Positions 6,647 to 35,065 are shown, counted from the stretch's first letter. The stretch is DNA of 54,443 bases from an uncultured Candidatus Saccharibacteria bacterium (GCA_964372935.1 CAYJRF010000005.1:1-54443); one strand, 5' to 3'. The notes: generated by a model not told the origin, from the sequence alone. Made by a program: numbers and translations.

Positions 6647-8512
6647 TTATACGGATTTTTTGATTCGGTAAGGTATCGCCAGAATTGATCCAAAGGTAAT
6701 CAAGATGCGCCATAGCCACGGCCGCCAGCCGGTCGCGCCCCGAGGTAGCGTAGCCGGCCCAGGGCCAGCGGCCTGCGCTTGCGGAATTGGTTCGAATCGC
6801 TGTTGGGTTGCTTCCGTGGTGGCGGGGGGCGAAGAGGCGGCTCGGCTGGCGACTGAACGGCTGGCGTCGTCAGGGCCTGGGCTGGTTGTTGCTCTCGGAG
6901 TAATCAGTTCAAAAGTGTCTCCGGCTCGGACGCTTAAATATGTTCCGCGGCTCGATTGTCGCCATTCCCCGCTGGCTCTGACCCGGTCGCCGCGCCGTAG
7001 AGCGGGCTTGGGGAGGCGGTATGACGAGTGGAGGACAATTCTAATTGGCTCGCCGGTGTCAGTGGAAATATCAATGGTTCTGCCGCTTGGCAAAACAACA
7101 GTGCCCGACAAGTCCGTTGCCCGATGGAGTGGCGCGGGAGACGGGCTGGAAGACTGGGAAAGCAATGCTGGAGGAGTGGTATCAGGCCAAAAGATACCGT
7201 CGCGAGTCCACGTTACGCCCTCCGGGGACGGTGGAATAGTGGCCGTATCGACGATATTTCCAGCCGAGTCGTATAAATCGTAGCTGCCGCCGGTGTTGAG
7301 TAAAAAATTACTGGCGCGAAACTCATGGGTCTCGCCGGGGGAAATTGTGCCGGTTAAATCGTAACTTATGGGACGATCCCGACGGCGCAATTGCCAGCTA
7401 TCGAGAATCGCCGGCACGTCATGATTGTTTTTGAGAGTGATGACTTCACTTTTCGTATCAACGCCAACCGGATTGGGTAAGAGCGATAGTATAACGACCT
7501 TGTTATACGTTTGGATATTAAGTATACGAGTGGCGATGTTAGCCTGATCGTCCAAACGTAAGTCAATACGGTATGTTCCGGACCGCTTAAATGACGGACG
7601 GAATGTCTGATCAGTCGACTCGGCAGGCTGGTTATCGACTGACCAATGATAACTGCCGCGATAATTTACGTCTGTCGCCGCTTTAAGCGTTAAGGGTTGT
7701 CCAGCGTAACCGCTATCCGGCCCGATGATTTGAGGTATTGCCGGTAACCCCGACCTAAAGTTGAGTGTGGCGAGGTGAACACCGTTGCCGATCTGGGTAA
7801 ATACCTCGCTATAGTCGGGCTCGGCGCGGCCAAAACGATAATAAGCCACATTGACAGTCTGTTCGGCGGTGCGGGTATTGGCCTGGCCGTTAAAAATCGG
7901 CACAATATGTTTAAGCGTGTTATCGTTGACAATGAAATATCCCTCTTGGTTTAATTGCCCTAGCTCATTATATGAGCGCATACTAAGGTCGTATAACGGA
8001 ACATTCGCTCCCGGTTGATATGATTGTAAAATACGACGATTTGTGGTTGATCCGACTTGCCTTCTCAACAGGTACAAAAATTTTTTCTGCCCTCCCGAAG
8101 ATACGCGGCCGATAATATGGCCGACGACTTGGCCGTTCGGACTGACGGAAATTATTGGCATATTGTTCCACTCATCGTGTTGGGCGAGCCACTTGTCACC
8201 ATTCCAGGTCTCTCCTTGGCAATTAAGGTTAGTGACATTCGTTTCATTGTCGAGGGGCAAATCGATGTCAGAGAAACATATTTTGACGCGAATATCTTGC
8301 GATATGTTTGGCGGACTTCCAAACGTAGTATCCAAGGGAATTAGGAACGGTTCATTGAGGCGAAGTGCCAGGAGAGTTCGGGCTTCAATCGCGGCGTGAG
8401 TTGGCATAGGGGCGGCGACGGCCAACAGCAAGCCACCAAGATAGCCCGCGGTGGCGATCGAGGGCCGCAATCTATGAATCGGGATCGTCAATAATGATGT
8501 CCAAGCCATCAC
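6647..8512 (-). CDS. Tail-anchored surface protein with PKD-like, lamin-tail (LTD) and OB-fold-like domains
   Basis: Signal peptide ...GGLLLAVAAPMPTHA. PKD-like GPDSGYAGQPLTLKA...YHWSV...GTYRIDL. LTD-like LLPNPVGVDTKSEVITLKNN...LDSWQL. OB-like LSGTVVLPSG...GDRVRASGEW. C-terminal TM helix WLWRILITFGSILAIPY. Confidence 0.6.
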   Translation of the reverse strand: MMAWTSLLTIPIHRLRPSIATAGYLGGLLLAVAAPMPTHAAIEARTLLALRLNEPFLIPLDTTFGSPPNISQDIRVKICFSDIDLPLDNETNVTNLNCQGETWNGDKWLAQHDEWNNMPIISVSPNGQVVGHIIGRVSSGGQKKFLYLLRRQVGSTTNRRILQSYQPGANVPLYDLSMRSYNELGQLNQEGYFIVNDNTLKHIVPIFNGQANTRTAEQTVNVAYYRFGRAEPDYSEVFTQIGNGVHLATLNFRSGLPAIPQIIGPDSGYAGQPLTLKAATDVNYRGSYHWSVDNQPAESTDQTFRPSFKRSGTYRIDLRLDDQANIATRILNIQTYNKVVILSLLPNPVGVDTKSEVITLKNNHDVPAILDSWQLRRRDRPISYDLTGTISPGETHEFRASNFLLNTGGSYDLYDSAGNIVDTATIPPSPEGVTWTRDGIFWPDTTPPALLSQSSSPSPAPLHRATDLSGTVVLPSGRTIDISTDTGEPIRIVLHSSYRLPKPALRRGDRVRASGEWRQSSRGTYLSVRAGDTFELITPRATTSPGPDDASRSVASRAASSPPATTEATQQRFEPIPQAQAAGPGPATLPRGATGWRPWLWRILITFGSILAIPYRIKKSV

Positions 8513-10615: not shown

Positions 10616-11779
10616 TTACGGGACGATAAATCGCGCTCGGCCGTAGTCGGCATAACTGACGTTGCGCCGTTCACTGTAGCCGAATGGCGGATTCCAATTG
10701 TATTCCGAAACATTAATCGTGCCGTCGTCGTTGACACCCTCGACGATCGCCGCGTGGCCATACGGCATTGCCGGTGCCCGATCCCACGACACAATCGCTC
10801 CGGACTGGGGTTTATCCACCACTTGATAGCCTTGGTCACGGGCTAAGGCCGGCCAATTCCACGCGCTTCCCTTGCCCGGGCGGGTATTTTCAAATGAGCG
10901 GCCGTAAACCACATTCCACTTCCAAGCGACATAGGACGTGCATTGACGGGTAAGAAAAAGCCAGGAATCAGCGCTATTAATCGCGGAGTAAGGGTAGCCG
11001 GAGGATCCGGTTAAATAAATTTCTTGATTTTGCTGGGCTAACTTTTGACGGAGGGCGTAGATCTCTTTCGAAATATCGTCGCGCTCCGAGGAAAGTTTTT
11101 TGACTAATTCCCGATACTTCGCTTCGTCGGCCTTTGATTGTTGAAGGAGACCGCTCTGGCGATGCTGTTTTGTCTGGAGGCTGGCGTTGCGGGCCTCCTG
11201 CTCGCCTTTGAGTTTAGCCAAAACGACGCGTTGAGCTTCCAAGCTGGTGCGCTTGGACTCGAGATCGGCTTTAACTCGCGACATCTCTTCGATGGTGGAA
11301 ATGATCCTCTCCTGAAGCGATTGGAGATATTCGCTGCGATCGGCGTAGCGCGAAATATCTTGCCCGTCGGACGCGACCTCGACTGACGACAGATTTGTCA
11401 GCTCATAGAGCGATGCCAGGGAGTCGTTAAGATCTTGATGAACACGGTTTAATTCGGCTGATTTGGTGGCAATGTCTTGATTTGTTGCCTTGATGGACGT
11501 CTCCTTGTCGTTGATTCGTCCCTCGTAATCGCGGATGCTATTTTTAACCGAGGCAATCTGATTTTCCAGGCCGGTAATTTCTTGGGTGTACGAGGCCGAA
11601 GTGTTGGCGGCCTTTTTTTGGAGATCATAATAGCGGTTCAACGAGTCTTCGGCTTGGCTTAATTGATCCTGGAGATCGCGCAGCGAGGCGGCCGAGACAG
11701 TCATTGGCACAACCAAAACTAGTGTCGCCGCGACAATCGCCGTTAGATCGCGAAGGGATAGGTGTCGTTTGCCTCCCAG
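10616..11779 (-). CDS. PcsB-like peptidoglycan hydrolase: coiled-coil N-domain plus C-terminal CHAP domain
   Basis: CHAP Cys (QCTSYVAWKW) and His (GHAAIVEGV). The long coiled coil resembles PcsB. The 5' end is extended to an in-frame CTG at 11779, which restores a complete signal peptide (see finding). The track start is TTG at 11716. Confidence 0.8.
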   Translation of the reverse strand: MGGKRHLSLRDLTAIVAATLVLVVPMTVSAASLRDLQDQLSQAEDSLNRYYDLQKKAANTSASYTQEITGLENQIASVKNSIRDYEGRINDKETSIKATNQDIATKSAELNRVHQDLNDSLASLYELTNLSSVEVASDGQDISRYADRSEYLQSLQERIISTIEEMSRVKADLESKRTSLEAQRVVLAKLKGEQEARNASLQTKQHRQSGLLQQSKADEAKYRELVKKLSSERDDISKEIYALRQKLAQQNQEIYLTGSSGYPYSAINSADSWLFLTRQCTSYVAWKWNVVYGRSFENTRPGKGSAWNWPALARDQGYQVVDKPQSGAIVSWDRAPAMPYGHAAIVEGVNDDGTINVSEYNWNPPFGYSERRNVSYADYGRARFIVP

Positions 11780-14574: not shown

Positions 14575-15489
14575 TTAGACTTCGCCCACGATACCAATTT
14601 CCGGCTCCAAGGTAAAACCGAATTGGGCTTTGACGGTCGCTTGGACTAATTCTATCAGAGAAAGAACGTCTTTTGCCGTGGCTCCGCCAAGATTAACAAT
14701 ATAATTGGCATGGAGAGGAGAAACCATGGCATTGCCCACCCGCTTGCCTTTTAAGCCAGCGCGGTCAATAAGGCGTCCGGCCCCAACGCCGTCAATTTTT
14801 TTGAAGACCGACCCACACGACGGATAATCTCGCAACTGGGGCTGTTTTTGAGTCCGCCACGCCAAGTTGGCTTCGGCTTGCTGACGCATTTTTTCGGGCG
14901 ATCGAGGCGTCAGTTGAAACGTCGCGTCAAGGACAACGATCTGGCGGTGATGGAGAATCGAATCGTCATAACCGAACGCAAAAAATTCTTTGTCAACGGT
15001 TCGGACCGAGTTATCCTCGGTTAACACACGAGCGAGACGAACTATCTCGGCCACGAACAGTGTGCTCTGCCGGTCCGGGGCGAGAAAATGGAGGTTTTGA
15101 CGCACCGCTCCACCGACAGACGAAGGAATCCCCACAAAATGTTCCAAACCGGAGAGGCCACGCTTCATACTCGCGGCGATCAAGGCTTCAATCGTCGCCC
15201 CGCTGTCGGCAACAAGGCGGTTGTCGGGCAAAAACCGATAGCCATCGGCACGGTTATGAATTACCAGTCCCCGGATTCCTTTGTCGCGAATCAAAATGTT
15301 CGCTCCGCAACCGAGAACAAAGTAGGGCAGACTGGCGTTTCGAGCGGCGATGACGATGGCGGCCAAGTCGTCGCCCGAATTCACCTCAACAAAATATTGG
15401 GCCGGGCCGCCAATCCGATACGTCGTGAAGGGCGCTAGGATAACTTCGTGGCGCAGCGAAGGCAGTTTGAGCATCGGTTCATTTAGCAT
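14575..15489 (-). CDS. murB: UDP-N-acetylenolpyruvoylglucosamine reductase MurB
   Basis: APFTTYRIGGPA, GCGANIL, GSVFKK, and a typical MurB length. Confidence 0.93.
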   Translation of the reverse strand: MLNEPMLKLPSLRHEVILAPFTTYRIGGPAQYFVEVNSGDDLAAIVIAARNASLPYFVLGCGANILIRDKGIRGLVIHNRADGYRFLPDNRLVADSGATIEALIAASMKRGLSGLEHFVGIPSSVGGAVRQNLHFLAPDRQSTLFVAEIVRLARVLTEDNSVRTVDKEFFAFGYDDSILHHRQIVVLDATFQLTPRSPEKMRQQAEANLAWRTQKQPQLRDYPSCGSVFKKIDGVGAGRLIDRAGLKGKRVGNAMVSPLHANYIVNLGGATAKDVLSLIELVQATVKAQFGFTLEPEIGIVGEV

Positions 15490-15522
15490 AGCACTCGCGA
15501 CGGGAATTATGGATCCACAACT

Positions 15523-15548
15523 AAAACACCTCCGTTCGGAGGCGTTTT
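15523..15548. terminator. A4/T4-flanked hairpin between pilA and murB (bidirectional-type terminator)
   Basis: aaaacacctcc/gttc/ggaggcgtttt lies 20 nt after the pilin stop on the minus strand. Confidence 0.5.
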
Positions 15549-15567
15549 AGCTGACACTAACGCGCGA

Positions 15568-16017
15568 CTATTGCGAGATCGTGATAACTTTACCAAGCTC
15601 GGCTGACGGAGCGTTGCCTTTAACACGGTTACCGCCCCCGGTGGTGTCGATGCAGATGGTGTAATCGCCACTCGTTGGCTGGGGATCCGCGGGAATGCTC
15701 GAGAGATAGGTCGGCACCATCAGTTGCGTCAGGGTTGACGCGCCACCACTGCCAAACGTTGAACCACTAATTACTTCTGGGGTTGCAGTGCAAACGTCGA
15801 CACCCAGACCAGTGATAGAGCCGTTATTATCGGCGGCGTACTGATTGGCCGCGCTCACCACGGCGCGGACGTCGCTATTGCGCTGGGTGTTACGGGCTTG
15901 GGAGAACTGACGAGCGGGGTTAACCGCCACGATAACGATTGCCGCCAAAATGGCGATGATTCCGATGACAACGATAAGTTCAATTAAGGTAAAACCTTGA
16001 TAAGTCTGTTGTTTCAT
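15568..16017 (-). CDS. pilA: Major type IV pilin (PilA-like)
   Basis: Class III signal peptide MKQQTYQG|FTLIELIVVIGIIAILAAIV with Glu at +5. SD AAGGAGAGG upstream. Confidence 0.85.
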   Translation of the reverse strand: MKQQTYQGFTLIELIVVIGIIAILAAIVIVAVNPARQFSQARNTQRNSDVRAVVSAANQYAADNNGSITGLGVDVCTATPEVISGSTFGSGGASTLTQLMVPTYLSSIPADPQPTSGDYTICIDTTGGGNRVKGNAPSAELGKVITISQ

Positions 16018-16091
16018 AGCCTCTCCTTTCTTTCTGTGGACAGCGCTCGCTCGACCTCATATCTGCAGAGCGCGAAACTACCAGTAACCCT

Positions 16092-16119
16092 ACTATAACG
16101 CAATTGGAAGACATTACAA
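16092..16119 (-). promoter_or_regulatory. Sigma70-like promoter for the major pilin gene
   Basis: On the minus strand, TTGTAA, a 16-nt spacer, then TATAGT, about 75 nt upstream of the pilA ATG. Confidence 0.35.
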
Positions 16120-16159
16120 GACCGCGTCAAGAGGGTAAGTCGATTGTCCGAAACGTGGT

Positions 16160-18403
16160 TTACCTCTGGCTGAAAGCGGGCGATTTGTCGATAGCGGCGC
16201 CAAAATCCGACTCGGCAGAAAATGCTCCGCTGGTAATCTCGGCGGTCTGAAGCAACGGTTTAGCTTGAATGGTTACGACCTGCTTTCCCAGATCAATAAT
16301 ACCGCGCGCGCCAACAACCGCCAACTCGGCGGTATAATCGCCTTGGCGGAGAGGCACTATCGCCACCCCTTGGGTATTGGTAATTTTCCGTTGGACTATC
16401 AGGCCGTAGTGATTGCGAATCGAGATCAAGACATAGCCAATCGGTTGGTGATTGGCGCTGCGAACCGTGATCATCAAATTGACCTCGCGCCGGCGACGAA
16501 TTTCTTCTATCAGGCCAAATATAAAGTAGCCGCTGATCAGTCCATGCATCGGGCTGGGGGCGGTCAGAAACGCCAGTGCGGCGCCCACCCCGGCAGCCAC
16601 CAGAAATATCCGTCGCAGGCTGGCCAGGTGGAACAAGAATGACTCCAACTGCTGTAATTTAAGGTGGCTAAGTTCGAGCGGATCCATCGCTAAATTAAGC
16701 TGGCTGACGTTTTTGGCGCTTTCAAAAGTAACATTCTCGCCTCGATATGCGTTGGGCATGATATGCGAGGGAAAACTAAAAGCGCCATGCCCGGCTGTCA
16801 GGAAGAACGACCCCGCGCCAACCGGAAAAGTGTAAAAGCCGTTTTCGTCCGTTGACGTGCGGGCGATTTCTCGTTTTGACGCGGCATCGGAGAGAATCAC
16901 CGTCGCGCGGCGGATCGGACGGTTCGTGGTGGCGGCGATCACCTTACCCCAAGCTCGGCCAATTTTCTGGTGATGGGTTAAGCCGAAAAACCAGTGGCGA
17001 CTGTTGCGCAAAGCCATGACTATTCGGAAACCGCGCTGAACAGCTCCTTCGCCCAGCGATATGGCAAATAGCCCAAGGAGGAAAAACAGAAGGTTGTCAA
17101 CCGGCGAGACAGTATAATTATTGGTCAGCCAACGTTTGATCATGATGACCGCGGCGGTGAAGTTGCCCTGCGGGGTTGCTGGCGAGTCGAGTTTTTGACT
17201 GAGCAAGTCCTTATAAAATGCTCTCGTGGCCGCGTCGCCCTGATTGCGGGCTGTGCCGGCGTATGCGGCCGTAAGGGTGGTAAAACGGTGTTCGCACTCT
17301 TTGATCGCGTCGCCGGCGAGAGTAAAATAATATGTCGTATCTGGGGTTAGCTCGGAAAGTTTGTAACGGTGATTGGCGGTGTTTTGGGATTCGGTCAGGG
17401 TAATTTTGGCGTCGGCGTAGTTGTTGGCGATCCCGTCGCGTCCGGCACGGGCGGCGTCGTAAAGGTAAATTCCTAGGCGCGTGGGGATGACGGAATTGAC
17501 AGTAACGACAGCTTGAGTGTCCGAGCGTATAACCGCCAAATTACGGAGCTTTCCTTGACACGGTTTAATGTCGTCGCGCTTGGCGTAGTCAAGGCCTTCG
17601 GTATTGTCAAAACCAGTGCCGGATAAGGCGGGTGGGTTGGTGGCGGCGTTATTGTCTGGCGCTACCGTTGTGGGGGCAGTCTTGTTGGCCACGTTGGTCG
17701 TGGTCGGCGACGTTGCCACAGGGGTTATAGTTTGACTGGCGACTGGTCGGGGGGTGGGCAAGCTATAGCGGATAGTTAATTTGGGCGGCGCCGGCCCGTC
17801 GCCTGACGACACGTGGGCGTCGTCACCGGAAAATAGTCCGGTTTTATAGTCGCCGTCGCCAAAGGCGCGGAGGGCGATGCCGTGATTAGGGTAAGTTCCA
17901 GCGACCCATCCCCGCACCGCCTCGGTAACGTCGATTGACGGCGGAAAAACGTTGTTGGCTACCTCTAAGTTGGCGATGCTTTCTTCGGAATAGCTCGGTC
18001 GCGTGTTCCAGGTGGTGGTTTTATCCCATGGCGAGGTAACGCGGCGCAGGCGAATGTCGCCGTAGCCATAAATGGCCGAACCGGAGGGGGTTAAGATTAA
18101 GGTGGCATCGCCAATGATGGCGTTGTTTGGCACTTGACTAACGTCGAACTGAATAAAACTCTCCTGGGCGTCGGCCGGGGCTGTGGCCCAGTCCATGCCG
18201 CCGTCGTAAAGCATGTCGAGCACAGGAGCGGCGTCAAACTGTTTGTCCGATTCGGTCAACTTTACCGTGGTGTCGAAGCTGGGAGTCAGGCTGACTTCAC
18301 TGGCGAATGCCAATCCGGGGGCCACGGCCAGCGCCGCCAGCCAGATCGCCAGACTCGAATAGACCACCACTCGGTGTCGCCAATGATACCTGACTAAAGT
18401 CAT
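16160..18403 (-). CDS. Large pilus-operon membrane protein: DNRLRE/CBM96-like domain, Thr/Pro linker, FN3-like domain, TM segments, two CarboxypepD_reg-like domains
   Basis: Signal peptide ...APGLAFA|SE. The TTTWNTRPSYS motif is typical of DNRLRE domains (recall). FN3-like ...YKLSELTPDTTYYFTL. CarboxypepD_reg-like ATVILSD...TDENGFYTFPVGAGSFFL and a second copy near the C-terminus. About 3 internal TM helices. Confidence 0.65.
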   Translation of the reverse strand: MTLVRYHWRHRVVVYSSLAIWLAALAVAPGLAFASEVSLTPSFDTTVKLTESDKQFDAAPVLDMLYDGGMDWATAPADAQESFIQFDVSQVPNNAIIGDATLILTPSGSAIYGYGDIRLRRVTSPWDKTTTWNTRPSYSEESIANLEVANNVFPPSIDVTEAVRGWVAGTYPNHGIALRAFGDGDYKTGLFSGDDAHVSSGDGPAPPKLTIRYSLPTPRPVASQTITPVATSPTTTNVANKTAPTTVAPDNNAATNPPALSGTGFDNTEGLDYAKRDDIKPCQGKLRNLAVIRSDTQAVVTVNSVIPTRLGIYLYDAARAGRDGIANNYADAKITLTESQNTANHRYKLSELTPDTTYYFTLAGDAIKECEHRFTTLTAAYAGTARNQGDAATRAFYKDLLSQKLDSPATPQGNFTAAVIMIKRWLTNNYTVSPVDNLLFFLLGLFAISLGEGAVQRGFRIVMALRNSRHWFFGLTHHQKIGRAWGKVIAATTNRPIRRATVILSDAASKREIARTSTDENGFYTFPVGAGSFFLTAGHGAFSFPSHIMPNAYRGENVTFESAKNVSQLNLAMDPLELSHLKLQQLESFLFHLASLRRIFLVAAGVGAALAFLTAPSPMHGLISGYFIFGLIEEIRRRREVNLMITVRSANHQPIGYVLISIRNHYGLIVQRKITNTQGVAIVPLRQGDYTAELAVVGARGIIDLGKQVVTIQAKPLLQTAEITSGAFSAESDFGAAIDKSPAFSQR

Positions 18404-18404
18404 C

Positions 18405-18803
18405 CTAAAAGCTCGCGACCTCGTTATACGACACCTGCTGGAGAGTCGCCGACTGGACGACCATCGCCAAATTTGTCCTTAGACCGTTTACCGAGGACCA
18501 AGCGTGGATCGTTTTGTTATTACCGGCGGTGGTAATGGCGTCAATAGTGCAAGCGGTTGCTTGATTGCCAATGCCAATCGTGAGGGTTTCATTCCCGAGA
18601 TAAACATTATTGAGGGAAAGGTTGAGGAGGGCCTGATCCATACAACCTTGAGCGGCAAACCGGCTTTGTTGTTTGTTGGTTTCGTCGAGAGCGCCAAGTC
18701 TGGCGGTAAACGAACTTAGAGCGATTGAGGTGCTGACGGTAATGAGAACGAAAGTCAGAATAATTACCGTGGTGATGGCCATAAAGCCGGAAGGGTGTTT
18801 CAT
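18405..18803 (-). CDS. PilX/GspK-like minor pilin lacking Glu+5
   Basis: MKHPSG|FMAITTVIILTFVLITV has a pilin-like hydrophobic N-terminus with Thr at +5. ATGA overlap with the upstream gene. Confidence 0.5.
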   Translation of the reverse strand: MKHPSGFMAITTVIILTFVLITVSTSIALSSFTARLGALDETNKQQSRFAAQGCMDQALLNLSLNNVYLGNETLTIGIGNQATACTIDAITTAGNNKTIHAWSSVNGLRTNLAMVVQSATLQQVSYNEVASF

Positions 18804-19318
18804 AGGAAAAAATAAGTTTGGTCGAACTGGCTGATCTGATAGCGGCCGGTGAGTGTCATTTGGACGCGTGCCGCCGCTTGGCCATTAATTGTTAGGCGGG
18901 TAAACAAGAGACCGCTGATTTGAGCGTGGCTGTTGCTGATCGGGTAGACGACATCGGCGGAGGTGAACAAACCGTCGCCGTTGCTGTCGCGCCAGAGTCG
19001 AAGACTACCGTTGGAGTCAAGTTGATAACGCGTCCCGTTGGCCTTTTGAAACGTTAGGACGGCGGCGGCGCCGCTGGCGGGGGTAACCGAGCCCTGATTT
19101 ACTTGCTCTAACAACCAGTTAAGCTTTTGGGAGATAAAGCGCCAGTTTTCACTCACCGCGGCTCGTTCGCGGTCGCGTTGACTGGCGGTAATCATGCCGT
19201 TGGCCGACGTCATAAATACTCCCACGATGGCCGAGACCAGCGCCGAATAGAGCAAGACTTCCACCAGCGACAAGCCAGCCGGCGACCTAAAACGTCGGGC
19301 GGATAATTCTAAGGGCAT
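18800..19318 (-). CDS. Minor pilin / pseudopilin
   Basis: ...RFRSPAG|LSLVEVLLYSALVSAIVGV with Glu at +5. Start placed at the internal ATG at 19318; the track ORF extends to 19399 inside the upstream gene. Confidence 0.65.
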   Translation of the reverse strand: MPLELSARRFRSPAGLSLVEVLLYSALVSAIVGVFMTSANGMITASQRDRERAAVSENWRFISQKLNWLLEQVNQGSVTPASGAAAVLTFQKANGTRYQLDSNGSLRLWRDSNGDGLFTSADVVYPISNSHAQISGLLFTRLTINGQAAARVQMTLTGRYQISQFDQTYFFL

Positions 19319-20714
19319 TGTTGCTCCTGACGGAAATATAGATGGTGTTGTTTTCATAGGTAATTCCGGTGGCGGCCTGGGGGAAATTGAGGGTGCCATA
19401 GTCGATGTTGATACTGGCCGGATTAGCGATGTCCAGGACCTGAAATTCGGCGTTCGGCTCTTCCGTAACCATAAACATCAAGCGGTTAACGGCGACCATG
19501 TCGTTAATGCCGGCGGCCATGCCGGCGGAACCCAACAGGGTGATCGCCGCCGGATTGAAGGCGTTGAGGATAAAAAACTCTGGGGCGGTGTCCGACAGCT
19601 TGCGTCCAAGATAAACGTTAAATTCGTCTTTGACAAAGACGCTGTAGCCGTCGGTGGTATCGGCGGCGTTGTAGCTCCCCAATTTGGTCATACTGGCCGG
19701 ACTACTGACGTCAATGACCATCAACTCCTCGTTATCCACCGAGGTAGCAAGGTAGGCGCGCTGATTGAATATCGTCATGTTGTTAACGTTGCCGTTAATC
19801 TCCAAACTGCCTAAAACCGTCGGATTAGCCGGATCGGTCACATTCAGGGCGTAAAACTCTGGCGCCCCGCTTAAGACTTCCATGCCGACGTACAGCGTGT
19901 TGCCCGACACCTCCAGACTTAAAGCGCGACAGGCGCATAAGTCTAGCCGCCGGACAACGACGGGTAAAGCCGGGTTGCTGACGTTGACGATAATCAGCTC
20001 GTCGGTTGAGCCGCCGGCGAGCGAGCCGTAAAGATAATTGCCGCTCACGGCGATCATGGAAATATTGGAGACGCCTAGGTCAACACTACTGTTATTAATC
20101 GGATTGTTGGGGTTAGTAACGTCAAAAATCGCCAGATCAGGCTTCGATTGATTAGCCGCGCTGGCCGACAAATAGACGCGGTTATTGAGACCCTTTACGT
20201 CGGTGCCGGCGGCGCCGATGGCGATGTCGGCTGTGCCGGCGCTTAAGGGCACTTTCCAATTGCCTTCGATATAGTTGCTGGCCTGGGTAACGCTCCAGTT
20301 GGTTAAAATTATGTTCAGGCTCACGGCCAGCGGCCGATTGTGCAAACCAGTCCAAGTAATGGCGCTGGTAACGTTTTTGCTGTTGGCCGAACGGGGGGTG
20401 ATAGTCAAACGGCGGGTAAACGTTCCTTTGGTGTCGCTCGATCCGGAAAATTGCCAATTATTGGCGACTTGGGATAAACCGAAAGTGCCGTTTTGGAGAT
20501 TGCTCCACCCCTGATTTCGAATTAGGCGGACGGCCTCGACGCCCTCCTTGGCGTAGGCCGAGGCGGCCAGAGCGTTTTGGGTGTCGGTCACCAGGGCGCG
20601 GCCGCCAGTAATGAGGGTGATTAAACTTGATGAGGTCATTAAAAACACGCTCGAGGCGATGACTAACTCTAGAACAGTCTGGCCGAGGTGGAAGCGCTTC
20701 ACGACAGCTACCAA
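19287..20714 (-). CDS. Pilin-like N-terminus fused to an LVIVD-repeat beta-propeller (candidate pilus tip adhesin)
   Basis: KRFHLG|QTVLELVIASSVFLM has Glu at +5. A likely GTG start at 20702 gives the leader MKRFHLG. At least 6 repeats of the type ELIIVNVSNPALP, LMVIDVSSPAS, FQVLDIANPAS, LAIFDVTNPNNP. Confidence 0.7.
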   Translation of the reverse strand: MVAVVKRFHLGQTVLELVIASSVFLMTSSSLITLITGGRALVTDTQNALAASAYAKEGVEAVRLIRNQGWSNLQNGTFGLSQVANNWQFSGSSDTKGTFTRRLTITPRSANSKNVTSAITWTGLHNRPLAVSLNIILTNWSVTQASNYIEGNWKVPLSAGTADIAIGAAGTDVKGLNNRVYLSASAANQSKPDLAIFDVTNPNNPINNSSVDLGVSNISMIAVSGNYLYGSLAGGSTDELIIVNVSNPALPVVVRRLDLCACRALSLEVSGNTLYVGMEVLSGAPEFYALNVTDPANPTVLGSLEINGNVNNMTIFNQRAYLATSVDNEELMVIDVSSPASMTKLGSYNAADTTDGYSVFVKDEFNVYLGRKLSDTAPEFFILNAFNPAAITLLGSAGMAAGINDMVAVNRLMFMVTEEPNAEFQVLDIANPASINIDYGTLNFPQAATGITYENNTIYISVRSNNALRIIRPTF

Positions 20715-21145
20715 TCAACCGTTCCTTCGGCGTTAGTCGTCACCGTCAAAATGCGATTGCCGGTTTGAAGGGTAATGACCGCGTTGCTGGTTTGTCCCGT
20801 CAGGGCGGTAAAGTTAAGATCCGCCGGTCCGGTCATGGTAACGGCGTTGGGTCGAGGGTACGTCAGACTTTGTTGAGTCGCGCCGGCGGCGTTCGGGCCC
20901 TGGTAGACGATAATCTGGGCGCTGGTAATACTCACCCCGTGGTTTGACTGATTAAGGTTGGTAACGGCCCGATCACGGGCGTAGGTCAAAAATGATACCA
21001 GGTTATCACGGGTGTCTCGCAGGTTGTAAGACGCCAGAAGGTCGAAGGTGGCTGGCGCCACCAAGCCGATCATGGTCGTCGCGATGGCGATCGCCATTAT
21101 TAACTCAATTAATGTATAGGCGGCAAGGGAACGGGCGCCGATCAT
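20708..21145 (-). CDS. GspH/FimT-like minor pilin
   Basis: MIGARSLAA|YTLIELIMAIAIATTMIGL with Glu at +5 and Ala at -1. LVSFLTYARDRAV resembles the GspH AR motif. The ATG at 21145 lies 1 nt after the pilC stop. Confidence 0.65.
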   Translation of the reverse strand: MIGARSLAAYTLIELIMAIAIATTMIGLVAPATFDLLASYNLRDTRDNLVSFLTYARDRAVTNLNQSNHGVSITSAQIIVYQGPNAAGATQQSLTYPRPNAVTMTGPADLNFTALTGQTSNAVITLQTGNRILTVTTNAEGTVDW

Positions 21146-21146
21146 G

Positions 21147-22214
21147 TCATTTTCCAATCGTTTGGCCCAGGCTGTAGATTGGCAGAATGATGGAGATGGA
21201 TATAAAGCCAACCAAACCACCCATGAATACCATCATCAACGGTTCGAGCAGGGAGATCATGTTTTTGGCAGTCTCGTCAACTTCTTGTTCGTAGTAATCG
21301 CTTAAGTAATTGAGGGTGGTTTCTAGGGTGCCGGCGGTTTCGCTAACTTCCACCATCTGGGAGAACATTTTTGGAAACAACTTCGGATAGCCCTGGAGGT
21401 ACTTACCCAACGGCGCGCCGACTCTGACTTGATCGGCCGCCCCGCGGGTAATTTGTCGGTAGACAAGGTTGGGCATGACTTCACTGGTGATGCCAAGGGC
21501 CTCGACGATTTTTGTCCCGCTTTTTAGAAGGACCGCGAAGGTGCGGGCAAACATGGCCACTTGGACGCTGCGGAAAAGGGGTCCCAAAATCGGTATGTGG
21601 AGGAAAAATCGGTGAATAAAGAATCGAAATGACCCAATATTGAGGGTGAGGCGGAAGGCGATGACAAAACTGGTGATAGACAGTATTACCGCGAGCCAAT
21701 AATGAGTAAAGAAGGCGTGAGTTTTAATCAGCACTCGGGTGGAAAGGGGAAGGATAACGTTCAGGGTACTGAAGACCGGCAAAATTTTGGGGAAGATCAA
21801 AAACATCAAGACGCTCGTGAGTCCCAAGGTCGTAACGAGAATTATTATCGGGTAAAGCATGGCATTGAGAATTTTGCTCGTGAGCATCTGGCGTTTTTTG
21901 AGTTCAACGGCCAAAAGTTCGAGGTTTTCCGACAGTGTCCCGCTGCTCTCGCCGACGCGGATGATATTAATAAACAGGCTGCCCAAGGCGCCCTCGAATT
22001 TCTTTAAGCCGGTGGAGAGGAACTGGCCATTTTCCAGGTCGTCAATAACCGATTGGAGCACTTTGTGCATACTGCGAGACTGGGTTTGTTGCTCGATCAT
22101 ATACAAGCTGTCGAGGAGGGGCATGCCCGAGCGCACCATCAAAGAAATATTACGGGCAAACAAAATTTGCTCCTTCACCGGTACTCGAAGGAAAAAGCTC
22201 CCAGATTTACTCAT
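21147..22214 (-). CDS. pilC: Type IV pilus platform protein PilC (GspF family)
   Basis: Two T2SSF repeats, 3-4 TM helices, and an 8-nt overlap with pilB. Confidence 0.9.
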   Translation of the reverse strand: MSKSGSFFLRVPVKEQILFARNISLMVRSGMPLLDSLYMIEQQTQSRSMHKVLQSVIDDLENGQFLSTGLKKFEGALGSLFINIIRVGESSGTLSENLELLAVELKKRQMLTSKILNAMLYPIIILVTTLGLTSVLMFLIFPKILPVFSTLNVILPLSTRVLIKTHAFFTHYWLAVILSITSFVIAFRLTLNIGSFRFFIHRFFLHIPILGPLFRSVQVAMFARTFAVLLKSGTKIVEALGITSEVMPNLVYRQITRGAADQVRVGAPLGKYLQGYPKLFPKMFSQMVEVSETAGTLETTLNYLSDYYEQEVDETAKNMISLLEPLMMVFMGGLVGFISISIILPIYSLGQTIGK

Positions 22215-23580
22215 GGACGACTCGCAAAACTTCTTCGATGGTCGTCTGACCGTTAATCGCCCGCCGAAACCCGTCTTGGAGCATGGTGGTCATGCCCGCG
22301 CTTTCGGCATAGTGGGAAATTTCGGCGGCGCTGGCCCGTTTCATTATTAGCTCTCTGATTTGATCGTCAACCACCAGGACTTCGTAAATGCCGACTCGAC
22401 CCAAGTAGCCACTCCCGCCGCAGACACCGCAGCCCCGGCCGACAAAAAATTGCCGCGTATTGCCAAGCGTTTGGGGCGGGATGGATTCGGCCAAGCTTTG
22501 ATATTCAACGTCGGTAATAACTTTAGGGGCGCGACAGTAAGAGCAAATTTTCCGCACCAGCCGCTGACCGACGGCGACGTTAACGGTTGAAGCGATCAAG
22601 AACGGTTCGATCTTGAATTCGCTCAATCGAGCCAGGGTTGTCGGGGCGTCGTTGGTGTGGACGGTCGACAAAAGCAAGTGGCCGGTCAAGGCCGCGTTAA
22701 CGGCAATTTCGGCGGTTTCTTCGTCGCGTATTTCTCCCACCATAATTATATTGGGATCTTGGCGTAAAAATGACCGCAGCCCATTGGCGAATGTTAGGCC
22801 GGACTGGGGGTTAACCTGAATTTGGTTGATGCCTTCCATGGAGTATTCAATCGGGTCCTCGATTGTAATAATCGACACTTCCGGTTTATTGAGCGTGTGA
22901 AGAATGGTGTAAAGCATGGTAGTCTTGCCCGAGCCGGTCGGGCCGGTGGCGAGAATCATGCCATAAGGACGAGTGATGGCGTGCTTGACTTTTTGAAGAT
23001 CGAGCGGAAACATGTCCATGTGTTCCAAGGTGAAAGACTCCGATGGCGACTGGAGAAGACGCATTTCAACGTTTTCACCGTAATATGTTGGGACGATTGA
23101 GACGCGAATATCAACCGGTCCAAGGTCGCGCAGGACCATTTTTAATCGCCCGTCTTGAGGGATCTGATGTTCGTCGGTTCGCAGACCGCACAGGATTTTG
23201 ATGCGCGAAACAAACACCGACTGAATGATCCGGGGAAGCGACAGAGCGTCGTGAAGAATGCCGTCAATCCGAAATCGTACCCGAACATAAGTTGGGGTGG
23301 GGTCAACGTGAATATCCGATGATTGCAAGAGGCTGGCATAGGCGATGAGCTGATCGACTAAGCGAACAATTGAAAATTCGCTCGCGTGGCGCGACAGTTC
23401 CTGTTCAATCGAGGCGCGAAGGGTCGCGGCGGTTTGGGCCGCTTGGGCGCGTTCAAGTATCTCCTGCTGTTCGCGCAGTTGCGTTGCCGTTACAGCGGCA
23501 TTGGGACCGACCACGGGCGAAGCAACATTCGCGCCGACGCCAGCCGCGGCCGAATCGTTCGTTGGATTGGCCGCGCCCAT
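22207..23580 (-). CDS. pilB: Type IV pilus assembly ATPase PilB (GspE family)
   Basis: Walker A GPTGSGKTT, Asp and His boxes, tetracysteine CSYC...CGVCGGSG. Low-complexity N-terminus with no T2SSE_N domain. The 5' end may extend (see finding). Confidence 0.93.
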   Translation of the reverse strand: MGAANPTNDSAAAGVGANVASPVVGPNAAVTATQLREQQEILERAQAAQTAATLRASIEQELSRHASEFSIVRLVDQLIAYASLLQSSDIHVDPTPTYVRVRFRIDGILHDALSLPRIIQSVFVSRIKILCGLRTDEHQIPQDGRLKMVLRDLGPVDIRVSIVPTYYGENVEMRLLQSPSESFTLEHMDMFPLDLQKVKHAITRPYGMILATGPTGSGKTTMLYTILHTLNKPEVSIITIEDPIEYSMEGINQIQVNPQSGLTFANGLRSFLRQDPNIIMVGEIRDEETAEIAVNAALTGHLLLSTVHTNDAPTTLARLSEFKIEPFLIASTVNVAVGQRLVRKICSYCRAPKVITDVEYQSLAESIPPQTLGNTRQFFVGRGCGVCGGSGYLGRVGIYEVLVVDDQIRELIMKRASAAEISHYAESAGMTTMLQDGFRRAINGQTTIEEVLRVVHE

Positions 23581-23874
23581 AATGTTGTTACTAACGGCGG
23601 GGACTGGTACGCCTATCGCCGGATTGGTATCAATCGGGTTCCTCCTCCTTATTTATCTTACCTATGGCTATCCCCAGACGCAAATGGTTTGGGGGCGTCG
23701 TGGCCGTATTCTTGAACCGATAGTTTTTGGCCTGATCTTTCGGACAACTGGCGGATAGCGTTATATTTCAATATTCCTGCGGGCATGACTTCGGCGGGGA
23801 TCAACGCCGCGCCACCGCAGATTGAAACATATTTAGAAACCGAGTATAAGGTGTACTGACTCGGAGCGATATCC

Positions 23875-26508
23875 TTAGCGGTTATCGGAACTATTTCCAT
23901 GGCATTTTTTAAACTTTTTGCCCGAACCGCACCAACAAGGATCATTTCGGCCGATTTTTGGCGACATCGGCGAGGGCCTTTCGTTACTCGAGTTGTCGTT
24001 CGGAGATATTATGGTTTCGTCGGCCGCGGTGGCGAATATGCCGCCACCGGCCAGAGATTCGTCGGCGCCGCGAAAGTCGAGATGAGGTTCGGCCGGCGCC
24101 ACGGGCGGCGCCGCTGGGGTAATCTCCACCGTGGCCAAGTGATGAATAACGTCGGTTTCGATTGCCGCCAACAGCCTCTCAAACAAGGAGAAGGCCTCGC
24201 GCTTGTACTGAACCAATGGGTCGATTTGACCGTAGGCCTGCAGGCCAATTCCGTGTCGCAGCTCATCCATCCGATTGAGGTGTTCAATCCAATACTGGTC
24301 TACCAGACGCAAATAAATTAACCGCTCGACTTCCTGAGTCACGGCCAAACCGTATCGGGCGATCTTGTTTTCATAGCTGACTCGGGCCTCGTCTGTCATC
24401 AGGCCGAGAAGCTCGCGATGGAGCCAGTTAGCTTCGGTTACCGACGCTTGGTTCGGATTGGCCGAGGGTTCAAGTTCTAAAATCCGCCGCCGTTTGCGGT
24501 AAATAATCTCGCGGTGCTTGTTCATCACGTCATCGTATTCGACAAGATGCTTGCGAATATCAAAGTTGTGGCCTTCGACGCGCTTTTGGGCGCTTTCGAT
24601 CGAGCGAGTAATCAAGGAGTGAGTGATCGGCACATCCTCTGGCAATCCCAGACGCTCCATCATTGATTTTAGACGGTTGCCGCCAAAAATCCGCATGAGA
24701 TCATCGTCCATCGAGACATAAAACATCGACGAGCCCGGGTCGCCCTGCCGACCGGCTCGGCCTCGAAGCTGGTTGTCGATGCGCCGCGATTCGTGGCGTT
24801 CGGTGCCAATAACGTGGAGGCCGCCCGCGGCGATCACTTTCTGATGGTCGGCTTGCCACGCTTTCCAGGCGGCGCTGGTGGCGTCGCGCGGTGGCGTTCC
24901 GCCCAAAATAATATCTACGCCGCGCCCGGCCATGTTCGTGGCGACCGTGACCGCCCCGGGTTGGCCGGCCTGCATAATGATTTTGGCTTCGCGTTCGTGG
25001 TGCTTGGCGTTCAAGACTTGGTGGGTAACGTGATGTTTTTTGAGCAATCGGGCTAATTTTTCGGATTTGGCGATGGAAATCGTTCCAACAAGGATCGGCT
25101 GGCCGCGGGCTCGCCGCTCGCTTATATCGGCAATCACGGCTTGAAACTTGCCGTCCTCGGTCTTGTAGATGTTGTCTTGGATATCTTTGCGGTCGATTGG
25201 TCGATGAGTGGGAATAATCACGACATCAAGCTGGTAGATCTTCCAAAACTCCTCGGCTTCAGTGGCGGCCGTGCCGGTCATGCCCGATAGCTTGGGGTAA
25301 AGGCGAAATAGATTTTGAAATGATATCGTCGCCAGAGTTTCGCTTTCCCGCTGAACTTCAACCCGTTCTTTCGCTTCAATCGCTTGGTGCAGACCTTCGC
25401 TGTAGCGCCGGCCGGGCATGAGACGACCGGTGAATTCGTCCACGATAATAACTTGACCGTCTTTCACGACATAGTCCTTATTTTTTCGATAAAGGGCGTG
25501 AGCTCGCAGGGCCTCTTCCAGGTGATGAACAAGAATGATGTTCTCCCCGTCGTACATGTTGGGCGTGTTTAGGGCCGATTCGACCTTAGCAATACCGGAA
25601 TCGGTGATGGTCACGGCGCGATCTTTTTCGTCAACGGCGTAATCTTGTTCGGGTTTTAATCGGGGGACAATTTCGGCAAAGGTGGCGTAGAGACTAGTGC
25701 TTTGGGCGGCCGGCCCGGAAATAATCAGCGGTGTGCGAGCCTCGTCAATCAGAATGCTGTCAACTTCATCGACAATGGCATAGAAAGGCGGACGCTGACG
25801 CAAGGCTTGATTCGTCGTGACCATGTGATCACGGAGATAATCAAACCCGAATTCGTTATTTGTGCCGTAGGTGATGTCGGCGCCGTACGCCTCGGGACGG
25901 GACACCGGACGAAAATGGGCCAGCCGTGGATCCGATTCTCCCTCAATCGACATGCTCGGGTCGTAGATAAACGACAGGTCGTGGGCGATAAAAGCCACCG
26001 ATAACCCAAGCAGGTGGTATAGCGGACCGTTCCAACCGGCGTCACGCTTGGCTAAATAGTCGTTGACTGTTACCAGATGGGCTCCGCGACCTGCCAAGGC
26101 GTTGAGGGCCAATGGCAGAGTGGCCACTAAGGTTTTCCCCTCGCCGGTTTTCATTTCGGCGATTTTTCCTTGGTGTAGGACGATCCCTCCCATCAACTGG
26201 ACATCAAAATGACGCATGCCGACGGTCCGCTTGGCCGCTTCGCGCGTCATGGCGAACACCGGCACCAAAAAATCGTCGAGAACTTTTTGGGTTTGTCGCT
26301 TGGTCGCGGTGTCATCGCCAAGTCGGTCAACAGACTCAAGACTGGCGAGGATATTGCGTCGCGCCGCGAGGAAGGACTCGCGAAGCGCTGTGTCCGAGAG
26401 CTTTTCCATTTCGGTTTCGCCCTGATTGATGGCGTCAACCAAGGGTTGGAGTCGTCGGGTATCGCGATTGGTAGTGTCGCGGATCGGGGAGGGAAAAAAC
26501 CGCATCAT
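23875..26508 (-). CDS. secA: Preprotein translocase ATPase SecA
   Basis: Full SecA pattern (MKTGEGKT, DEVDSILIDEARTPLIISG) and C-terminal zinc motif CWCGSGKKFKKCHG. Start set at MMRFF (26508), avoiding overlap with hpf. Confidence 0.97.
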   Translation of the reverse strand: MMRFFPSPIRDTTNRDTRRLQPLVDAINQGETEMEKLSDTALRESFLAARRNILASLESVDRLGDDTATKRQTQKVLDDFLVPVFAMTREAAKRTVGMRHFDVQLMGGIVLHQGKIAEMKTGEGKTLVATLPLALNALAGRGAHLVTVNDYLAKRDAGWNGPLYHLLGLSVAFIAHDLSFIYDPSMSIEGESDPRLAHFRPVSRPEAYGADITYGTNNEFGFDYLRDHMVTTNQALRQRPPFYAIVDEVDSILIDEARTPLIISGPAAQSTSLYATFAEIVPRLKPEQDYAVDEKDRAVTITDSGIAKVESALNTPNMYDGENIILVHHLEEALRAHALYRKNKDYVVKDGQVIIVDEFTGRLMPGRRYSEGLHQAIEAKERVEVQRESETLATISFQNLFRLYPKLSGMTGTAATEAEEFWKIYQLDVVIIPTHRPIDRKDIQDNIYKTEDGKFQAVIADISERRARGQPILVGTISIAKSEKLARLLKKHHVTHQVLNAKHHEREAKIIMQAGQPGAVTVATNMAGRGVDIILGGTPPRDATSAAWKAWQADHQKVIAAGGLHVIGTERHESRRIDNQLRGRAGRQGDPGSSMFYVSMDDDLMRIFGGNRLKSMMERLGLPEDVPITHSLITRSIESAQKRVEGHNFDIRKHLVEYDDVMNKHREIIYRKRRRILELEPSANPNQASVTEANWLHRELLGLMTDEARVSYENKIARYGLAVTQEVERLIYLRLVDQYWIEHLNRMDELRHGIGLQAYGQIDPLVQYKREAFSLFERLLAAIETDVIHHLATVEITPAAPPVAPAEPHLDFRGADESLAGGGIFATAADETIISPNDNSSNERPSPMSPKIGRNDPCWCGSGKKFKKCHGNSSDNR

Positions 26509-26618
26509 GACCTTCGCATTGTACCTAAAACGCCTGTCGCTGTCATGTCGGGGCCCAACCGGTGGTCGAGCGATTAAATCGCCCCGAACCGACGAAACAG
26601 CCCGACGGAACGAGACAG

Positions 26619-26981
26619 TCAATCGCGGTTTTGGTTTGAGGCCGACCACTCTTTTGGCGAGAGACCGGTGTAGTGATAATCGGACTGCTTATCTTTCTCA
26701 ATACTTATCGCGCCGTCTAGGCGATCCAAAACCCGATCGACCGCTTCAATCAAACTGGCGCCATGAGCCAAAAATCGAATCACCGGTTTACGCCCGGGAA
26801 TGTCGACAATGACTTCGGCGGCCTTGTCACCCTGGGGACCGGACTTGGGGAGTTGTTTTACCACGACCTCCATATAGGCGCTGGCCGGCACTAGATGAAG
26901 AAAACGCTGGCATTTCTCCTTGATCTCCGCCACCATCGTCGGCGGACACTCCACGGAACGATGCTTGACATGGACATTCAT
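26619..26981 (-). CDS. hpf: Ribosome hibernation promoting factor (HPF/RaiA, short form)
   Basis: 120 aa. ...ASLIEAVDRVLDRLDGAISIEKDK matches the S30EA pattern. hpf immediately upstream of secA matches Firmicutes synteny. Confidence 0.75.
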   Translation of the reverse strand: MNVHVKHRSVECPPTMVAEIKEKCQRFLHLVPASAYMEVVVKQLPKSGPQGDKAAEVIVDIPGRKPVIRFLAHGASLIEAVDRVLDRLDGAISIEKDKQSDYHYTGLSPKEWSASNQNRD

Positions 26982-33927: not shown

Positions 33928-34000
33928 CTCGCCCAGACATAGAGAAGACGCGAAATTGCCATATTTACTATATAGGGCAACTATACCACGGACAACAGTC

Positions 34001-34174
34001 ATGACAGATGAGTTTGCAGTGGATAAATATCTCAGCCGACGTTTAGGTTATGACCAGCAAAAGATTAAACACAAGAAACATCAGGACGTGAACGCCGATA
34101 TCAACCCCAATACAATCGAAAACTTCTGGGGCTCGCTTTTTGACCAGATGATTTCACTGGTTTCGAAAAATTAG
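34001..34174 (+). CDS. Small hypothetical protein in the AT-rich island
   Basis: 57 aa from the ATG at 34001 (the track ORF begins at 33917, overlapping priA). No SD and no family match. Confidence 0.2.
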   Translation: MTDEFAVDKYLSRRLGYDQQKIKHKKHQDVNADINPNTIENFWGSLFDQMISLVSKN

Positions 34175-34250
34175 CCATTGCATGTCGCTCTCCACGAATG
34201 TAGCATACAAGTAGTTCCAGGCCAGACACAATTAAGCGTGTGCCTGTTTG

Positions 34251-34278
34251 TTGACAATTTCTACCCACTTAGTATAAT
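34251..34278 (+). promoter_or_regulatory. Consensus sigma70 promoter upstream of the HicB-like ORF
   Basis: TTGACA (34251-34256), a 16-nt spacer, TATAAT (34273-34278). The ATG at 34297 lies 18 nt downstream. Confidence 0.55.
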
Positions 34279-34296
34279 CCAATAAACTTTTTCATC

Positions 34297-34656
34297 ATGA
34301 TTAAAATTAACAACACACTACATCGAGGCACAGTTACAGTTTTTCTTTTCCCCAAAGGTAAAAAATACATTGGGGTATGCTTGGAACTGGATATCGTTGA
34401 CGAAGATACTAATATTGAAGAACTTAAAACTCGAATCAGAGAACGAGTCGATTCTTATATTGATTATGTTTGTGATAATAAAAAAGATGGGGCATTACTA
34501 AATCGTCCGGCGCCAGATGAATATTGGAAGAAGTTTTTTACTTATATTCGTTATTTGCAAGAACTTGAGAAAAAAGCTTCATTCCGTAACCACTTCGATC
34601 AACCAACAGAAGGAGTGATTGAGACGTTGCCTCTACGTCGTTTTGCGCGAGCCTGA
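34297..34656 (+). CDS. HicB-like antitoxin-fold protein
   Basis: VTVFLFPKGKKYIGVCLELDIVDEDTNIEELKTRIRERVDSYIDY matches the HicB/UPF0150 pattern 'DGGYvA.cPEL.g...qGeT.EEA..n..eai..yle' (recall). Confidence 0.45.
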   Translation: MIKINNTLHRGTVTVFLFPKGKKYIGVCLELDIVDEDTNIEELKTRIRERVDSYIDYVCDNKKDGALLNRPAPDEYWKKFFTYIRYLQELEKKASFRNHFDQPTEGVIETLPLRRFARA

Positions 34657-34671
34657 TCTAAGTAATCTAAA

Positions 34672-34899: not shown

Positions 34900-35065
34900 A
34901 TGGTTAAAAACAATAAATCGTGCAACAAGCTTAGCTGGGACTAAATAAAAGAAGCTTTATAATCTACATATTACAACGTGATGTACTAGTGTTATTGCCA
35001 TATTCAGATCCGTTCAAAAACACTCCGGGTGGTTAGCCAAGCTTTCAGCCGTGCGGGCGGTGTGG

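Follow-up and report, generated by a model that had tools for sequence, protein, structure and literature searches.

A probable type IVa-like pilus operon of Patescibacteria with a propeller-bearing minor pilin and a lineage-specific surface protein

What kind of machine is encoded by eight closely packed genes at 15568-23580 on the minus strand of a 54,443-nt stretch of DNA from an uncultured Candidatus Saccharibacteria bacterium (GCA_964372935.1, CAYJRF010000005.1:1-54443), in which one pilin is fused to a beta-propeller and a gene for a 747-aa membrane protein is placed between the minor pilins and the major pilin? In what follows, the whole stretch is called the window, and the related sequences with which it was compared carry the labels L001-L009 (loci) and P0xxx (homologous proteins or protein clusters). 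The eight genes, namely pilB, pilC, four pilin-like genes, the gene of the 747-aa protein and pilA, probably constitute the core of a type IVa-like pilus of Patescibacteria (the candidate phyla radiation, CPR), in which a minor pilin would also serve as the tip adhesin and the 747-aa protein as an accessory. The locus consists of the following features:

22207-23580, minus strand: pilB, extension ATPase, 457 aa (PF00437 T2SSE, 2.2e-120)
21147-22214, minus strand: pilC, platform protein, 355 aa (PF00482 T2SSF, two stretches, 1.4e-53)
20708-21145, minus strand: minor pilin 1, 145 aa, A/YTLIE, putative H-type (GspH/ComGD/FimU-like; weak ComGD/GspH matches and position)
19287-20714, minus strand: minor pilin 2, 475 aa, G/QTVLE, predicted I-type pilin with a seven-bladed LVIVD propeller (AlphaFold2 (AF2) model; LVIVD 2.7e-11)
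18800-19318, minus strand: minor pilin 3, 172 aa, G/LSLVE, J position (direct reading and sister gene calls)
18405-18803, minus strand: minor pilin 4, 132 aa, G/FMAIT without Glu5, K position (weak PilX_N match and orthologue alignment)
16160-18403, minus strand: 747-aa surface protein (DNRLRE, CBM96 and CarboxypepD_reg matches)
16018-16159, minus strand: non-coding stretch upstream of pilA that contains a Shine-Dalgarno sequence and a weak promoter-like site (sequence reading and comparison with shuffles)
15568-16017, minus strand: pilA, major pilin, 149 aa, G/FTLIE (N_methyl 1.1e-7, TIGR02532 3.4e-7)
15518-15553, minus strand: terminator hairpin after pilA (folding energy compared with shuffles)

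The answer to this question starts from minor pilin 2, a protein of 475 aa (possibly 471 aa, from a start four codons later) for which AF2 returned a model with a pLDDT of 94.5 and a pTM of 0.83. The model has an alpha1 helix at residues 10-68, a pilin sheet at 76-138 and, at 152-474, 28 strands that form seven four-stranded blades. An initial annotation of the sequence had proposed that one minor pilin is fused to a beta-propeller, and this is confirmed by the predicted fold together with the LVIVD repeats recognised by Pfam (2.7e-11); the protein is, as modelled, a modular pilin made of a pilin module (10-138) and a propeller (152-474). The pilin modules of 16 family members matched ComGE in nine cases, PilV in five and XpsI and GspI in four each, and because of these matches the propeller pilin is classified by its predicted family as an I-type minor pilin (PilV/GspI/ComGE-like). 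Profile searches of the PDB with the pilin module returned matches to the N-terminal helix or nothing. Across 70 homologues the glutamate at +5 (E16) hardly varies. A candidate-limited search found at least 132 homologues, about a hundred of them full-length (445-515 aa), and their source names are all those of Patescibacteria (Jorgensenbacteria, Paceibacterota and Uhrbacteria).

The genomic setting of the propeller pilin is equally constant. The order pilB, pilC, a gene for about 150 aa, a propeller pilin of about 470 aa and genes for about 170 and about 130 aa was found in every locus read, with the full cassette present in L001, L002, L003, L004, L005, L007, L009 and the P0041 contig. L006, a single locus from a scan of a genome collection with an alignment of 12 close sequences, has the same order up to the end of its contig, just after the propeller gene. 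The order is beyond chance because it recurs in more than nine unrelated contigs. In L003, L004 and L007 a pilA gene (about 155 aa) follows the cassette directly. A comparison of synteny, which the initial annotation had put forward as the test of whether the two large genes belong with the pilus genes, thus finds the propeller pilin beside pilB/pilC in every locus examined and the 747-aa gene beside them in a subclade.

Two tandem pilB-pilC-four-pilin cassettes occur in L005 (30-11284), with a gene for a prepilin peptidase (Peptidase_A24) between them. In the other cassette, position 2 encodes a propeller-free pilin of 289 aa, whose pilin module aligns with residues 23-148 of the propeller pilin in the window. 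Since this paralogue has the same pilin module without the propeller, it provides direct evidence for position 2 as a predicted carrier of exchangeable modules. The propeller pilin and an MshEN-containing PilB are confined to the second L005 cassette, behind which a PAS histidine kinase and a response regulator are encoded. A different kind of pilin gene was seen in L003, a 609-kb Patescibacteria contig, where three tandem small T4SS_pilin (PF18895) genes are found at 18593-19452, 8 kb downstream of the cassette.

A minor pilin with a propeller has a precedent in PilX2 of the saccharibacterium Nanosynbacter lyticus TM7x, which is needed for host binding and not for the extrusion of filaments (Grossman 2024, PMC11623550). 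The TM7x T4P-2 pilus and the window system are both type IVa-like pili of Patescibacteria with a set of minor pilins, one member of which carries a seven-bladed propeller. The PilX2 propeller, however, is described as RCC1-type and PilX2 has no predicted PilD signal, whereas the window protein has LVIVD repeats, a canonical G/QTVLE and the conserved Glu5; Pfam gave no RCC1 match in the window propeller pilin at E<0.1. In view of this description of PilX2, the window protein is an analogue of PilX2 from another propeller family and not its orthologue. The two systems also differ in layout, as the TM7x pilins are encoded in a locus apart from pilB2/pilC2 (which occur with pilMNO), while in the window pilB, pilC and all pilins make up one operon with no pilMNO nearby. 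Furthermore, no anchored CBM96 protein has been reported in the TM7x locus, and the window operon has one.

Modular pilins have also been described in Streptococcus sanguinis, where PilB-vWA and PilC-lectin were proposed to be tip-exposed adhesins (Raynaud 2021, PMC8179133). The window protein shares with them a small pilin module that carries a functional module on its C-terminus; in the window this module sits on the I-type member of an H-I-J-K set. Dataset S1 of the same study already lists the combination of a pilin domain (IPR012902) with LVIVD (IPR013211) in proteins with one (n=8), two (n=8) or five copies (n=7), CPR proteins among them, and an 860-aa Falkowbacteria protein with 12 copies is given there as well (PMC8179133). 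IPR013211 corresponds to LVIVD (PMC10210494), which PMC8179133 describes as a "motif of unknown function", with no structure, genomic context or minor-pilin position given. Both the LVIVD repeats and the DNRLRE domain, which is found in the 747-aa protein, were originally described from cell-surface proteins of archaea and bacteria (PMC2447325). The view that the arrangement lies outside the described systems is not supported, as pilins with LVIVD had been catalogued (PMC8179133) and the propeller-bearing minor pilin PilX2 is a demonstrated host-binding adhesin (PMC11623550). No description of the operon, of the H-I-J-K assignment or of the CBM96 accessory was found in the literature searched.

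What, then, are the other three minor pilins? As a set, the four are colinear with GspH-I-J-K and FimU-PilV-W-X in their order, in their sizes and in a last member without Glu5. Their class III N-termini read as first annotated, and that of pilA can be added to them. Minor pilin 1 gave weak matches to ComGD (4.6e-6), GspH (4.8e-5) and Pfam GspH (0.013), while a profile of nine orthologues matched the N-terminal helix of solved pilins at 5e-10; the gene is kept at the same position in all related loci. The orthologues of minor pilin 3 (152-187 aa) also keep their position, and the family has weak sub-threshold matches only (ComGF 1.2e-4, GspJ 0.08), with matches in the PDB confined to the N-terminal pilin helix (0.002-0.006). 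Minor pilin 4 has a glutamate at +5 in none of eight orthologues, in which G6, C54 and C85 are invariant, and its PilX_N matches are weak (0.035 in the window, 0.0055 for the best of the eight). As expected, this Glu5-less subunit at the K position fits the predicted part of a subunit that caps the filament. The order agrees with the canonical priming set named in the initial annotation; by sequence comparison the H/I/J/K equivalence is supported for I, weakly supported for H and positional for J and K, where the matches stay below threshold.

Four minor pilins with a tip propeller, a fourth member without Glu5 (PilX/GspK type) and a colinear order are also features of the PilY1/FimU-PilVWX system. 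PilY1 is a separate tip protein in diderm pili. As a non-pilin with its own propeller family it differs from the window protein, in which propeller and pilin are joined in one polypeptide; the window locus is without a secretin or PilMNOP. Neither a PilY1/Neisseria_PilC match (Pfam, E<0.1) nor PilY1 among the best 50 Foldseek matches was found for the propeller pilin.

The packing of the genes was examined junction by junction. The pilB and pilC genes overlap by 8 nt (22207-22214), pilC and minor pilin 1 are 1 nt apart (21146), minor pilin 1 overlaps the propeller gene by 7 nt (20708-20714), minor pilins 3 and 4 share an ATGA (4 nt, 18800-18803), and a further gap of 1 nt at 18404 precedes the 747-aa gene, all of which agrees with what had been annotated. 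A correction is needed for minor pilin 3, whose start is the ATG at 19318 behind an AGGAG; the resulting protein of 172 aa agrees with independent gene calls for three further assemblies of this organism, and its gene overlaps the propeller gene by 32 nt. Of the nine packed genes originally placed at 15523-23650, the packing and the gene coordinates are borne out and the count is eight. A ninth candidate, a 95-aa open reading frame (ORF) at 23658-23945, was rejected, having no Pfam match and no gene call in sister assemblies. It is likewise correct that the genes are co-oriented, all being on the minus strand, but this is uninformative by itself because nearly all genes between 2.5 and 30 kb are on that strand.

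The ATPase and the platform protein place the operon among the type IV filament systems. PilB reaches 482 bits on the TIGR02538 PilB model (profile positions 150-563), 494 bits on GspE and 234 bits on ComGA (cut-off 300), all three below the equivalog cut-offs. Because the alignment covers positions 150-563 of the PilB model only, PilB is predicted to be without the N-terminal MshEN/N1 domain, and because the GspE and PilB scores are nearly equal and below their cut-offs, the type IVa label is approximate. PilC, with three hydrophobic regions and two T2SSF domains, scores 277 bits on GspF, 253 bits on the Thermus-type PilC and 128 bits on ComGB (cut-off 240). On the PilB/GspE and PilC/GspF models the two proteins reach about double the scores that they have on ComGA and ComGB.

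Two side observations concern PilB. In the subclade of the window PilB has 457-487 aa and no MshEN, while the PilB proteins of L005, L007 and the P0041 contig have 551-583 aa and an MshEN domain. In addition, the pilB ATG at 23580 has no Shine-Dalgarno sequence, and a strong AAGGAGGAGG is located at 23650-23641, about 60 nt upstream. After AAGGAGGAGG, a TTG (23633) opens a mini-ORF of six codons (MIPIRR and a stop), and an ATT (23634) in the frame of pilB would add 18 residues; the region 23580-23655 (minus strand) may contain a leader peptide or a non-canonical start of pilB.

These scores bear on the first of the alternatives, a DNA-uptake (competence) pilus, in which extracellular DNA would be captured by the filament to supply a symbiont poor in nucleotides, with the propeller or some other minor pilin serving as the receptor. 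The compact set of an ATPase, a platform, four minor pilins and a major pilin without a secretin does resemble the monoderm comGA-GG layout of Firmicutes, and the best named matches of minor pilins 1 and 2 are ComGD and ComGE, the latter with the nine of 16 modules given above. Pilus-mediated DNA uptake has also been proposed for CPR bacteria, which lack nucleotide synthesis. On the other hand, the ComGA and ComGB scores are far below those on PilB/GspE and PilC/GspF, and no com genes (comEA, comEC, comFA; comE/comF) were found among the larger ORFs of the window. The major pilin gene is third in comGA-GG and last in the window, Com pili have neither a propeller nor a CBM96 protein, and the beta-propellers together with the CBM96 protein point to protein or glycan ligands. 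The propeller-bearing T4P-2 of TM7x, moreover, made no contribution to competence (PMC11623550). We regard DNA uptake as an unlikely function of this operon.

A second alternative, which we consider very improbable, is a piston like that of the type II secretion system (T2SS), in which a short pseudopilus would carry proteins through the wall or S-layer for export or display, the 747-aa protein being its cargo or partner. It can draw on the GspE, GspF and GspG models, which are at or near the top for PilB, PilC and PilA, on the gene order H-I-J-K, which equals gspHIJK, and on a window without pilT. However, the scores on GspE, GspF and GspG are all below the equivalog cut-offs, GspC, D, L and M are missing from the window, the C-terminal region of PilA with its two cysteines is like that of type IVa pilins, and the 747-aa protein has a Sec-type signal peptide and an anchor of its own and thus needs no dedicated exporter. 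Surface filaments have been seen on CPR cells. The pili that TM7x assembles with homologous machinery are true pili (PMC11623550), which also argues for a pilus rather than a piston. Consistent with the initial annotation, no secretin (GspD), pilM/N/O, pilT or prepilin peptidase (pilD) was found among the larger ORFs of the 54-kb window, nor GspC/L/M, and PilT and PilM/N/O were also not found in the 18-21 kb read around related cassettes.

For the type IVa-like pilus, the bulk subunit would be PilA. Its N-terminus (MKQQTYQG/FTLIE) is a class III signal peptide with a hydrophobic segment score of 3.5, two cysteines are located in its C-terminal half, and it shares 40-53% identity with an orphan pilin in L008 and with the pilins encoded behind the minor pilins of L003, L004 and L007. 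The initial annotation had assigned to pilA its own promoter-like element, Shine-Dalgarno sequence and terminator, of which the latter two hold. A Shine-Dalgarno sequence, GGAGAGG, is found 3 nt upstream of the ATG, and on the 3' side of the stop codon a hairpin with a 16-bp stem and a 4-nt loop has a folding energy of -28.3 kcal/mol (z -6.3; none of 200 shuffles was as stable), the 3' arm being formed by a T-rich run. The promoter-like TTGTAA-16-TATAGT at 16119-16092 matches at nine of 12 positions, but such hexamers before pilA are at shuffle level, with eight matches against 6.5 expected.

The orphan orthologue of pilA in L008 (13729-14208, 53% identical) is about 65 kb from the pilus operon, L008 being on the same 537-kb contig as L001. 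It is near yidC and two-component genes, and a further protein with Kelch and CBM96 domains starts at 18240.

What remains to be placed is the 747-aa protein, and here the answer is more divided. The claim that a large multi-domain membrane protein is encoded between the minor pilins and pilA was accurate. The protein begins with a Sec-type signal peptide followed by a DNRLRE/CBM96 domain; a Pro/Thr-rich linker leads to an FN3-like domain, and last comes a C-terminal membrane anchor module, which in turn consists of a transmembrane segment (TM), a CarboxypepD_reg Ig-like domain, a TM pair and a second Ig-like domain. The domain matches are DNRLRE (4.4e-24, residues 44-196), CBM96 (1.5e-13), CarboxypepD_reg (1.3e-9, residues 486-540) and Pur_ac_phosph_N (2.4e-4), and hydrophobic segments occur at 12-30, 432-455 and 593-617. 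The anchor module is marked by two motifs, a conserved KKxxxWGRV behind its first hydrophobic segment and DIPxDP ahead of the pair of helices, and no Pfam or NCBIfam model covers it as a whole. Because the KKxxxWGRV motif is basic, the sequence suggests that the first Ig-like domain may be cytoplasmic, which would be unusual.

Orthologues of 721-739 aa that are 31-35% identical to the 747-aa protein follow minor pilin 4 after 0-4 nt in L001, L002 and L009. A further orthologue, P0128, is probably on one contig with the propeller homologue P0009, as can be deduced from the equal length of their longest contigs (12,743 nt). The gene occurs where the propeller pilins are at least 50% identical to that of the window and is missing from L003, L004, L005 and L007; in the sister loci it is followed by groES, and only in the organism of the window does pilA come directly after it. 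Its role as a component of the pilus operon, as initially annotated, is therefore upheld by synteny within a subclade and does not extend to the distant cassettes. The 747-aa protein is not a universal part of the machine.

The method of searching mattered for this protein. Word-indexed searches with a single sequence or a profile of four sequences returned one true relative and missed the syntenic orthologues, so that an exhaustive profile search was needed, which found about 10 full-length clusters; P0124-P0129, P0135 and P0137 are full-length relatives. The last approximately 250 residues (16160-17130 in the window) form a C-terminal module that is common to at least 56 of the best 150 clusters. 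Proteins with this anchor module have 265-3534 aa and ectodomains of the Kelch, FN3, CHB_HEX or CBM96 type, with P0131, P0136, P0142, P0149, P0151 and P0259 among the examples. The Kelch-bearing paralogue in L008, the only paralogue locus read, adjoins dnaA and not pilus genes. As the module is found on many proteins and the Kelch paralogue is located beside dnaA, the anchor is generic and the 747-aa protein a lineage-specific addition.

This raises the question of whether the 747-aa protein takes part in the pilus at all. It may be an unrelated passenger, a general surface glycan-binder that came into the operon in a single subclade and plays no part in the pilus. The cassettes without the gene (L003, L004, L005 and L007), the many other ectodomains on the same anchor and the paralogue beside dnaA all favour such a passenger, but its position and its spacing of 0-4 nt to minor pilin 4 are kept across the orthologues. 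Selection on co-expression can be argued because the gene keeps this position and spacing despite an identity of 31-35%. We therefore give the passenger a minority chance of being right, albeit an appreciable one. At the other extreme, the pilus would have a true partner in the 747-aa protein, whose module would be a previously unnamed surface-display anchor of ultrasmall bacteria that in this subclade couples a glycan-binding ectodomain to the base of the pilus and possibly replaces the missing alignment proteins of the PilMNO type; this is an unlikely reading.

Taken as a type IVa-like pilus with a tip adhesin, the operon would work as follows. Judging from their families, PilB and PilC would power and seat the filament and polymerise PilA beneath the minor pilins. 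The four translationally coupled minor pilins at the H, I, J and K positions would, again from what is known of their families, form a priming complex that ends up at the tip. The propeller may be displayed there as an adhesin, by analogy with PilX2, the modular pilins of S. sanguinis and PilY1, while PilA, with its own ribosome-binding site and strong terminator, would supply the bulk subunit. As a lineage-specific, co-translated accessory, the 747-aa protein would be membrane-anchored and of a carbohydrate-binding type, and it would probably help to bind the envelope of a partner cell.

Several points weigh against this model. The propeller resembles only generic WD40-like propellers in the PDB and offers no clue to a ligand. 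PilB scores marginally higher on the GspE model (494 bits) than on the PilB model (482 bits), both below the cut-offs. The H, J and K assignments stem from position, size and matches below curated thresholds, and a profile search of the PDB gave minor pilin 4 no significant match to a solved pilin. The absence of pilD, pilT and pilM/N/O from the 54-kb window bears on processing, retraction and the rest of the machine. Finally, AF2 of the 747-aa protein from an alignment of two sequences gave an unusable model with a pLDDT of 38.

The operon is flanked by murB (14575-15489) and secA (23875-26649), and the remaining genes of the window are housekeeping genes (ftsEX, ruvB, SerRS, class I LysRS, a def-fmt fusion, ligA, thyX, glyA, ThrRS, folD and zwf). 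A mobile or viral origin of the cluster was considered and rejected, as GC content and skew are flat throughout and the flanks are murB and secA. Some of the neighbouring genes are of interest in their own right. The def-fmt fusion (35051-36511, plus strand) is a single ORF of 486 aa in which a peptide deformylase (20-169) is followed by a methionyl-tRNA formyltransferase (185-358); in L003, def and fmt are separate adjoining genes. At 543 aa and with two Thy1 stretches, the product of the thyX ORF (42780-44411, minus strand) is roughly double the normal size. At 34000-35050 the GC content falls to 0.46 and there are small ORFs only, of 119 aa (34297-34656) and 52 aa (34672-34830); these have no Pfam match and the stretch has no Rfam family. 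Also on the minus strand, 6647-8512 encodes a 621-aa protein with a lamin-tail domain (26.9 bits, below the cut-off of 34.3), and 10616-11716 a 366-aa CHAP-domain protein directly downstream of ftsEX.

Among the structures by which ultrasmall episymbiotic bacteria may find their hosts and stay attached to them, pili are the foremost candidates. To our knowledge, only the pili of Saccharibacteria have been tested so far. A self-contained operon with an adhesin in an I-type minor pilin would be a recurrent design across other lineages of the Patescibacteria, and it extends a recently established principle beyond Saccharibacteria, being a good example of that principle and not a new kind of machine. 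Current understanding is not overturned by it; what is gained is a confident structural model and a defined set of genes for experiments. In addition, the CBM96 protein of the subclade and its widely shared anchor module provide a lead on how large surface proteins may be displayed by these bacteria.

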